From the UHGV virus genome UHGV-0171999: a stretch of 64,000 bases of DNA; one strand, 5' to 3'. Below the pieces are notes generated by a model. It was not told the DNA's origin, made no database searches, and saw nothing but the letters and a program-made list of their open reading frames with translations. The stretch comes from a virus. Position numbers and translations under genes: made by a program. Below, one piece after another: positions 37,071-64,000 of the stretch (its first letter is position 1; every line of letters starts with the position of its first letter).

Positions 37071-38285
37071 ATGAAAGTATGTATTTTTATGGCTCGAGGT
37101 CTTGAAGGTTGCGGTGTAACTAAATTTTCTCTTGAGCAGCGTGATTGGTTTATTAAAAATGGTCATGAAGTAACTTTGGTTTATGCTAAAGATAAATCAT
37201 TTACCCGTAATTGCGCGCATGATTATAAATCATTTTCAATTCCGGTTTTATTGGCAAAAGAATACGATAAAACGCTTAAGTTGGTAAATGATTGTGATAT
37301 TCTAATTATCAATTCAGTTCCTGCTACTTCAGTCGAAGAAGACACAATTAATAACTATAAAAAAATTATTGATAACATTAAACCTTCGGTTCGTGTTGTA
37401 GTTTATCAACATGACCATTCTTCTCTTTCTTTGCGCCGAAATTTGGGATTAGAAGAAACTGTTCGTCGAGCTGATGTTATTTTTAGTCATTCTGACAATG
37501 GTGACTTTAATAAAGTTTTAATGAAAGAATGGTATCCGGAAACTGTTTCTCTGTTTGATGATATTGAAGAAGCACCGACTGTATATAACTTCCAGCCTCC
37601 TATGGATATTGCGAAGGTTCGATCAACCTACTGGAAAGATGTTTCTGAAATTAACATGAATATCAACCGTTGGATTGGTCGTACGACTACATGGAAAGGT
37701 TTTTATCAGATGTTTGATTTTCACGAAAAACATCTTAAACCTGCAGGACTAAGTACTATTATGGAAGGTTTGGAACGTTCTCCAGCGTTCATTCCTATTA
37801 AAGAAAAAGGAATTCCAAAAGGAATTCCATACGAGTATTATCGTCTTCATCAAGTAGACCAAATTAAAATTGCTCCTAATTTGCCGACGCAAATTCTCGA
37901 CCGTTATGTAAATAGCGAAATGCTTGAACGCATGAGTAAATCCGGATTTGGTTATCAGCTGAGTAAGTTGGACAAAAAATATCTACAGCGTTCTTTAGAA
38001 TACACTCATCTCGAGCTTGGTGCATGCGGAACAATTCCAGTATTTTGGAAATCTACTGGTGAAAATTTAAAATTCCGTGTTGATAATACTCCATTAATTT
38101 CTCATGATAGCGGTATCGTTTGGTTTGATGAAAATGACATGGAATCAACATTTGAGCGTATTAAAGAACTGTCATCTGACCGAGCTCTTTATGACCGTGA
38201 ACGTGAAAAAGCTTATGAATTTTTGTATCAGCATCAAGATTCAAGCTTCTGTTTTAAAGAACAGTTTGACATTATTACAAAATAA
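37071..38285 (+). CDS. agt: DNA alpha-glucosyltransferase
   Basis: MKVCIFMARGLEGCGVTKFSLEQRDWFIKNGHEVTLVYAKD... matches remembered T4 alpha-gt; 404 aa. Confidence 0.9.
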   Translation: MKVCIFMARGLEGCGVTKFSLEQRDWFIKNGHEVTLVYAKDKSFTRNCAHDYKSFSIPVLLAKEYDKTLKLVNDCDILIINSVPATSVEEDTINNYKKIIDNIKPSVRVVVYQHDHSSLSLRRNLGLEETVRRADVIFSHSDNGDFNKVLMKEWYPETVSLFDDIEEAPTVYNFQPPMDIAKVRSTYWKDVSEINMNINRWIGRTTTWKGFYQMFDFHEKHLKPAGLSTIMEGLERSPAFIPIKEKGIPKGIPYEYYRLHQVDQIKIAPNLPTQILDRYVNSEMLERMSKSGFGYQLSKLDKKYLQRSLEYTHLELGACGTIPVFWKSTGENLKFRVDNTPLISHDSGIVWFDENDMESTFERIKELSSDRALYDREREKAYEFLYQHQDSSFCFKEQFDIITK

Positions 38286-62380: not shown

Positions 62381-62563
62381 ATGGATTTATTTGAGATGTT
62401 AGAAGATAATCATTCTACGAATATCCAGAATGATTCTAGTGATTATAAGAAAGAGTACCGTATAGTATTACAGAATTATGGAATTGAAGCCCCAGATGCT
62501 CTTCTAGAAGAACTAGCTTCATACCATCTTGACCCTCCGCCCTGGGCTCCCTGGGCAAAATAA
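62381..62563 (+). CDS. small acidic hypothetical protein
   Basis: 60-aa ORF. Confidence 0.45.
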   Translation: MDLFEMLEDNHSTNIQNDSSDYKKEYRIVLQNYGIEAPDALLEELASYHLDPPPWAPWAK

Positions 62564-62574
62564 TTCAAAAAGTT

Positions 62575-62604
62575 GTTTACTTTCCTTCCTAACAATGATA
62601 TGAT
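62575..62604 (+). promoter_or_regulatory. T4 early promoter
   Basis: GTTTAC, 18-nt spacer, TATGAT. Confidence 0.55.
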
Positions 62605-62630
62605 AGCTTCTGAAGTATATGGAGGCTATC

Positions 62631-63254
62631 ATGATTATTAATCTTGCAGATGTTGAACAGTTATCTATAAAAGCTGAAAGTGTCGATTTTCAATATGATA
62701 TGTATAAAAAGGTCTGTGAAAAATTTACTGACTTTGAGCAGTCAGTTCTTTGGCAATGTATGGAAGCCAAAAAGAATGAAGCTCTTCATCGGCAGTTGAA
62801 TAAAATCGTTAAAAAGCATTTAACTAAATCACCTTATCAGCTATATCGTGGTATATCAAAATCGACAAAAGAACTCATTAAAGATTTACAAGTCGGAGAA
62901 GTGTTTTCAACGAACAGAGTAGATTCATTTACTACTAGTTTGCACACAGCGTGCGGTTTTTCTTATGTTGAATATTCCACTGAAATAATATTTCGCTTAA
63001 AAACTGATAAAGCTTTTAATTACTCTGACCATATCAGCGATATTATACTTTCTTCTCCTAATACTGAGTTTAAGTATACATATGAAGATACCGATGGATT
63101 AGATTCAGAACGTACTGATAACTTAATGATGATTGTACGTGAACAAGAATGGATGATTCCAATTGGAAAGTATAAAATAACTTCTATTTCAAAAGAAAAA
63201 TTACACGATTCATTTGGAACATTTAAAGTGTATGATATTGAGGTAGTTGAATGA
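62631..63254 (+). CDS. modB: ADP-ribosyltransferase ModB
   Basis: R (LYRG), S-T-S (FTTS) and ExE (EQEWMIP) motifs; 207 aa from internal ATG. Confidence 0.8.
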   Translation: MIINLADVEQLSIKAESVDFQYDMYKKVCEKFTDFEQSVLWQCMEAKKNEALHRQLNKIVKKHLTKSPYQLYRGISKSTKELIKDLQVGEVFSTNRVDSFTTSLHTACGFSYVEYSTEIIFRLKTDKAFNYSDHISDIILSSPNTEFKYTYEDTDGLDSERTDNLMMIVREQEWMIPIGKYKITSISKEKLHDSFGTFKVYDIEVVE

Positions 63255-63853
63255 AATATTCAGCAATGCAATTAAAAGATTTTAAAATCAAATCAATGGA
63301 TGCATCGGTGCGTGCTTCTATTCGTGAAGAATTACTTTCTGAAGGATTTAATTTATCCGAAATTGAACTTTTAATTCATTGTATTACTAATAAGCCAGAC
63401 GATCATTCTTGGTTAAATGAAATAATCAAATCTCGTTTGGTTCCAAACGATAAACCTCTTTGGAGAGGTGTTCCAGTTGAGACTAAGCAGGTGTTAAATC
63501 AAGGAATTGATATTATTACATTTGATAAAGTAGTATCAGCTTCATATGATAAAAATATAGCTCTACATTTTGCTTCTGGATTAGAATACAACACGCAAGT
63601 TATTTTTGAATTCAAAGCTCCTATGGTGTTTAATTTCCAGGAGTATGCTATAAAAGCTCTACGTTGTAAAGAATATAGTCCGAGTTTTAAATTTCCGGAT
63701 AGCCATCGTTATCGTAATATGGAATTAGTTTCAGATGAACAAGAAGTAATGATACCAGCTGGAAGTGTATTTAGAATTGCGGATAGATATGAGTATAAAA
63801 AGTATTCAACATACACTATCTATACTCTTGATTTTGAAGGATTTAATCTATAA
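63251..63853 (+). CDS. modA: ADP-ribosyltransferase ModA
   Basis: LWRG, SAS, EQEVMIP motifs; 200 aa as T4 ModA. Confidence 0.8.
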   Translation: MKYSAMQLKDFKIKSMDASVRASIREELLSEGFNLSEIELLIHCITNKPDDHSWLNEIIKSRLVPNDKPLWRGVPVETKQVLNQGIDIITFDKVVSASYDKNIALHFASGLEYNTQVIFEFKAPMVFNFQEYAIKALRCKEYSPSFKFPDSHRYRNMELVSDEQEVMIPAGSVFRIADRYEYKKYSTYTIYTLDFEGFNL

Positions 63854-63855
63854 TG
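63792..63855 (+). repeat. direct repeat copy 1 (3' end of modA)
   Basis: 55 nt identical to 63946-64000, about 64 nt with two mismatches. Confidence 0.7.
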
Positions 63856-63909
63856 GAAGGACTTAGATTCATTATACCATGAAAGTTTTAAAGCATTTTT
63901 CATAAAGTT

Positions 63910-63939
63910 GTTTACAAGCTGAAGTAAAAATGTTATAGT
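63910..63939 (+). promoter_or_regulatory. T4 early promoter between the two repeat copies
   Basis: CATAAAGTTGTTTACA, about 18-nt spacer, TATAGT. Confidence 0.55.
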
Positions 63940-64000
63940 ATAAGTAGTATTCAACATACACTATCTATACTCTTGATTTTGAAGGATTTAATCTATAATG
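63937..64000 (+). repeat. direct repeat copy 2 (duplicate of modA 3' end; window ends here)
   Basis: Identical to 63801-63855. Confidence 0.7.

Follow-up and report, generated by a model that had tools for sequence, protein, structure and literature searches.

The last nucleotides of the window, a 64,000-nt stretch of a Tequatrovirus (T4-like) genome whose + strand is the direction of early transcription, probably hold the first joint of a 145-bp tandem duplication at the modA-srd junction, created by a homology-guided slip. A gene tail standing on both sides of a promoter mimics the insertion of a cassette, but relatives show that the promoter is native and that the second tail is the extra DNA. 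Judged against those relatives, the ~90-bp segment between the tails, which an initial annotation had taken for a promoter-containing insert, is the ordinary native modA-srd intergenic region, found at the same site in T4, T2, ECP2301, and six IMG/VR contigs. By the same comparison, nothing lacks a counterpart except the second modA tail itself, 52 nt at 63949-64000. The feature is a structural variant and not a functional element in its own right; its joint is unique among about 500 sequenced relatives, while the type of event is already well known. The features concerned are the following.

62619 or 62631 to 63254, + strand: ORF of modB, a tandem paralog of modA
63251-63853, + strand: modA (RNA polymerase ADP-ribosyltransferase), a complete and intact ORF of 200 aa
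63792-63803, + strand: microhomology arm A (AGTATAAAAAGT), within the modA coding sequence, at the upstream boundary of the proposed duplicated unit
63804-63948, + strand: copy 1 of the proposed duplicated unit, 145 nt, made of the final 50 nt of modA, stop included, and the intergenic region with the promoter, ending in arm B
63910-63939, + strand: predicted early (sigma-70 type) promoter of srd, with -35 GTTTAC(A), a 17-nt spacer, TG, and -10 TATAGT
63937-63948, + strand: microhomology arm B (AGTATAAGTAGT), which overlaps the last bases of the -10 box as well as the predicted start; the single arm at the joint
63948/63949, + strand: new joint between ...GTATAAGTAGT and ATTCAACATAC..., at about +3/+4 of the predicted promoter transcript
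63949-64000, + strand: start of copy 2 of the proposed duplicated unit (modA tail, 52 nt), an exact match to 63804-63855, cut by the window edge

Over its last 1.4 kb, the window matched 502 phage records by megablast at 90-99% identity, and its nearest relatives over 20 kb are about 95-97% identical. The window ModA agrees with T4 ModA at 195 of 200 residues over the full length, the matching records annotate the same ORF as modA or RNA polymerase ADP-ribosylase, and gene content at modA-srd is unchanged with respect to relatives. A repeat search reproduced the coordinates of the repeat described in the initial annotation (55 nt exact, about 64 nt with two mismatches): positions 63792-63855 recur at 63937-64000 as a direct repeat of 64 nt with 2 mismatches, 97% identical, at a start-to-start spacing of 145. 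The mismatches fall at 63799-63800 (AA) versus 63944-63945 (GT), and the exact part covers 55 nt (63801-63855 and 63946-64000) with a 90-nt spacer between the exact copies. The first copy consists of the last 62 nt of modA, including the stop, plus 2 nt past it; the second was correctly described as running to the window edge, where it stops at 64000. With up to 3 mismatches allowed, the 52-nt core (63804-63855, repeated at 63949-64000) occurs exactly twice in the window, and the core repeat arose in 0 of 100 shuffles. Such a repeat, 64 nt long and spaced at 145 nt, greatly exceeds what chance would give. When the window was scanned with TRF for signs of an amplification-prone or lab-evolved genome, no further tandem duplications were found, the sole hit being a 12-nt, 2-copy repeat at 37805.

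Which part of this arrangement is extra was decided by comparison with T4 (two records), ECP2301, and six IMG/VR contigs, eight distinct comparators when T4 is counted once, with T2 besides. The modA genes of T4 and ECP2301 end in ...GAGTATAAAAAGT(A/G)TTCAACATAC...CTATAA and lead into the same ~93 nt, whose promoter is also the same and ends in ...GTTATAGTATAAGTAGT, and then into TAACC(C)GTCC...GAGAAAAATATG, which is the start of srd. The window is identical to ECP2301 over 63770-63948. All nine comparators and 502 of 502 records contain the 93-nt modA-srd segment, and the 52-nt segment is single copy in T4, T2, ECP2301, and the six IMG/VR contigs, where the promoter leads directly into TAACC...srd. 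A native query of 211 nt (modA end, promoter, and srd start) matched 502 records at one place each and aligned as one piece in each of 30 rows sampled across the ranking of those records; the window's own end aligned in two pieces in every record among the matches listed. Likewise, the 1401-nt query spans only 1349 nt in the listed records because 63949-64000 has no counterpart there.

These comparisons bear directly on the suggestion that a mobile promoter cassette, either PeSL-like or transposon-like, was inserted in the 3' end of modA with duplication of its target, a reading that we find barely credible. The spacer does contain an early promoter of the TTTACW-N17-TAYWAT type, as in PeSLs of the PST/T4 group (PMC4122927), and the gene 56-dda region is plastic in T4 (cited in PMC2839356). 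However, every relative examined (502 of 502 records) has the segment at the same site without duplication; as it is native in all of them, there is no empty site, and no insertion took place. Nor does a duplicated stretch of at least 52 nt resemble the target duplications of transposition. The repeat search found no inverted repeats involving 63856-63948, and the only ORFs there are 8-aa mini-ORFs. The initial annotation's mobile cassette with target duplication is thus left with neither an empty site in relatives nor terminal inverted repeats, and a transposon target-site duplication was ruled out on the same two grounds.

The promoter itself was correctly recognized in the initial annotation. 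Its elements are GTTTAC(A) at 63910-63916 and TATAGT at 63934-63939, separated by a 17-nt spacer, with TG upstream of the -10 box; a consensus scan scored TTTACA-17-TATAGT at 63911-63939 as 10/12 with TG and placed the predicted start near 63946. A short motif of the spacer had been reported to recur elsewhere, and it does: AAGTTGTTTAC has five exact copies in the window (4224, 4589, 33767, 62570, and 63905), all on the + (early) strand, the copy at 62570 preceding modB. Its meaning is another matter, as AAGTTGTTTAC is the extended -35 box of T4 early promoters and not the mark of a mobile element, GTTTAC being the T4 early promoter consensus (PMC1524935). The literature names the T4 early promoters Pe11.5 and Pe12.8 in this neighborhood, neither of them tied to window coordinates, and the T4 GenBank records carry no promoter features at modA-srd.

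PeSLs are defined as an early promoter plus a stable stem-loop, and exchange takes place between two PeSLs that flank ORFs (PMC2839356; PMC4122927). The srd promoter segment shares several of their traits: it is a strong sigma-70-like early promoter with an AT-rich upstream region, it is intergenic and lies in a plastic early region as PeSLs do (Arbiol et al. 2010, PMC2839356; Comeau et al. 2014, PMC4122927), and the joint, like PeSL recombination, falls near the -10/start region of a promoter. The stem-loop is lacking, however. The best local hairpin in the modA-srd spacer reaches only -2.7 kcal/mol, the fold of 63840-63950 (-14.8 kcal/mol) has a z of -0.32 and that of 63856-63912 a z of +0.69, and no terminator-like site was found in the spacer. 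In contrast to PeSL exchange, one partner here is coding sequence rather than a second PeSL, there is no ORF cargo, and the product is a duplication rather than the excision or integration of a cassette. A PeSL cassette was accordingly rejected as a candidate, with no stable stem-loop terminator or attenuator and no ORF gained, lost, or swapped.

The spacer also holds two mini-ORFs on the + strand. One, at 63853-63882 (ATGGAAGGACTTAGATTCATTATACCATGA, MEGLRFIIP*, 8 codons), overlaps the stop codon of modA in the sequence TAATG; T4, ECP2301, and four IMG/VR contigs all conserve it. The other, at 63879-63905 (ATGAAAGTTTTAAAGCATTTTTCATAA, MKVLKHFS*, 8 codons), has lost its start codon in two contigs (ACG in L006 and L007). 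Both may reflect chance, or a context for translational coupling or termination.

At the joint, native sequence is left after ...AGTATAAGTAGT and resumes at ATTCAAC..., position 63804. The result is a head-to-tail junction at 63948/63949, ...AGTATAAGTAGT followed by ATTCAACATAC..., with the native promoter end on its left and 63804 onward on its right. Arms A and B match at 10 of 12 positions (consensus AGTATAA[AA/GT]AGT), and AGTATAANNAGT occurs on either strand of the 64-kb window only at 63792 and 63937. For pairs of 12-mers at a distance of 145 nt, the background of matches at 10/12 or better is 2.4e-4 in the window, or 1.5e-4 over many offsets. To the left of the arms, similarity is gone (12/40 matches). 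T4, ECP2301, and four of the six IMG/VR contigs natively carry both AGTATAAAAAGT and AGTATAAGTAGT at a distance of 145 nt, and TAACC...srd comes next after arm B in relatives. Because arms matching at 10/12 are native at both boundaries, the breakpoint lies in a pre-existing microhomology, a finding that favors the illegitimate recombination offered as one reading in the initial annotation. Between the repeats there is only one microhomology, the B-type arm at 63937-63948. The same 52 nt carry 1-2 substitutions in four of the eight distinct comparators, whereas the two copies in the window are identical, which indicates a recent event within this genome.

In two of the IMG/VR contigs, L006 and L007, arm B has a 1-nt deletion (agtatagtagtc versus agtataagtagtt), and L006 has a substitution in arm A as well (agtacaaaaagt). 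The microhomology is therefore not universal in the genus.

The sequence to the left of the joint also speaks to a different origin for the second tail, namely, another modA-like gene of which it would be the 3' end. Since modA and modB already form a tandem pair of paralogs, one could in principle imagine a third, and the initial annotation had allowed that the second copy might turn out to be the end of a modA paralog. Yet copy 2 is immediately preceded by the intergenic promoter, which does not differ from that of relatives, and identity to modA ends abruptly at the microhomology. Read in the modA frame, this upstream DNA gives ML*YK*, two stops within 20 nt and no start codon. With promoter and stops in that position, we give a paralog essentially no credence.

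It is very unlikely that no duplication exists and that the second tail arises by wrap-around, as a terminal overlap left untrimmed in a circular or permuted assembly. T4-type genomes are circularly permuted, their records often have terminal overlaps, and the repeat touches the window edge. On the other hand, the breakpoint of such an overlap would be arbitrary, yet the 12 nt to its left match at 10/12 against the background of 2.4e-4, and both ends of the record would have to fall within the modA-srd junction, 145 nt from each other.

The reading that we prefer, a tandem duplication mediated by microhomology, would require few steps. A 3' end synthesized through arm B would re-pair with arm A, 145 nt upstream in modA, and then be re-extended, either by replication slippage or by UvsX-type minihomology strand invasion. 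Such a slip, with synthesis on B and re-priming on A, would leave a single B-type arm, and a single B-type arm is what the joint shows. Beyond the 52 visible nt of copy 2, the second unit would presumably be complete and have srd after it. If so, copy 2 would read GAAGGACTTAG...promoter...TAACCCGTCC...srd past 64000, that is, GAAGGACTTAGATTC...GTTATAGTATAAGTAGT and then TAACCCGTCCGTGAGAAAAATATG, the start of srd, at about 64094.

Events of this kind have precedents in T4. In tandem segmental amplifications, microhomologies of 6-10 bp flank the unit and one is left between the repeats (PMC9391042). The amplifications of dmd-tifA (Srikant et al. 2022, PMC9391042) occurred in the same phage group and are likewise head to tail with an early promoter in the unit; there, as in the window with its 10/12 arms, the microhomology is native at both boundaries and one remains at the joint. 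Amplifications of Hp17 gene 16-18 and rearrangements of rII are further T4 cases cited in the same work. The differences are of scale and circumstance. The unit in the window is 145 bp and contains no complete gene, whereas the published T4 amplifications range from 0.7 kb to several kb (PMC9391042) and were selected for gene dosage; the window variant comes from a natural or unspecified isolate that is not known to have been under selection, and here the first joint alone is visible. For UvsX-dependent joining in T4, minihomologies as short as 3-4 nt suffice (PMC8262927). This repair pathway (Wu et al. 2021, PMC8262927) likewise uses very short homologies and offers a plausible enzymology for the slip, although its products were deletions at CRISPR-cut sites, in contrast to a duplication with no known break.

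One further possibility is that the joint reflects how the contig ends, arising from rare chimeras or from an unresolved de Bruijn loop, so that the packaged genome is single copy or the duplication is confined to a minor subpopulation. We consider this account unlikely but worth keeping in mind. The exact repeat of 55 nt stops exactly at the window edge, and de Bruijn assemblers commonly use 55 as their final k; by our reasoning, a k=55 contig re-entering an already visited 148-nt repeat would end in the same way. The joint is also found in no other public sequence searched. Megablast with 111-, 301-, and 1401-nt queries failed to find it in the 502 phage records, E. coli genomes, or plasmids, and exact scans with a 31-mer and a looser 21-mer failed to find it in IMG/VR, JGI metagenomes, or GTDB genomes. 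The sole 21-mer hit, in a Flavobacteriales MAG, had unrelated flanks and was dismissed as chance.

Several observations nevertheless count against an origin in assembly. Assemblers do not join sequences on an imperfect 12-mer, a microhomology this far above background fits in vivo T4 recombination better than random chimeras, and the agreement with k=55 may be a coincidence that depends on how the window was cut. Even a loop in the graph could not form unless some reads crossed the joint. As joint-spanning reads must exist, a real recombination product, present in at least part of the DNA population, ranks well above a pure artifact. Either way, this spot in the assembly deserves a check, since copy number and circular closure could both be affected by a 148-nt repeat where a contig may end.

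If the tandem duplication is real, its consequences for the surrounding genes are predicted to be small. As the stops of ML*YK* lie upstream, copy 2 is untranslatable as a ModA tail and is therefore noncoding, and the joint creates no new ORF or fusion. By its sequence, promoter copy 1 keeps all of its recognition elements. With a complete second unit, two identical predicted early promoters, spaced by 145 nt, would serve srd and dda.1/dda. Of these, the upstream one would yield an srd transcript with a 145-nt longer leader beginning with the untranslated modA tail, and promoter copy 2 would give the native srd transcript. Srd reportedly stimulates RNase E (Qi et al. 2015). The effect on transcription of srd, dda.1, and dda is likely to lie between neutral and a modest rise. 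Headful packaging, with its terminal redundancy of about 3.3 kb (PMC9391042), should hardly be affected by 145 bp more.

It is improbable that the duplication is fixed in a natural Tequatrovirus and adaptive, raising expression of srd and dda.1/dda through promoter doubling or higher-order amplification of the 145-bp unit. Were this the case, it would represent a wild "accordion" amplification of a promoter or gene, a behavior seen in T4 so far mainly under laboratory selection. A real duplication would in any event provide a further natural example of T4-type DNA reshuffling at very short homologies, with tandem early promoters placed before srd, and would be of little importance beyond its source genome.

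A separate observation concerns the other early-type promoter in this neighborhood, just before modB. The mechanical modB ORF begins at ATG 62619 and encodes 211 aa, whereas the annotation of T4 and ECP2301 gives a 207-aa ModB corresponding to ATG 62631 (MIINL...). The + strand at 62560-62640 folds with -19.3 kcal/mol (z -2.98), and 0 of 200 shuffles did as well. A strong predicted hairpin at 62570-62645 on this strand has a 5' arm that overlaps the -10 box TATGAT (62599-62604) of the promoter and a 3' arm that covers GGAGG and the modB start codon or codons, with both ATG 62619 and ATG 62631 inside it. Its sequence is nearly invariant in 9 relatives. The hairpin looks like a classic T4 arrangement, in which read-through transcripts would sequester the ribosome-binding site, while modB transcripts from the local promoter look as though they would lack the 5' arm and thus be translatable.
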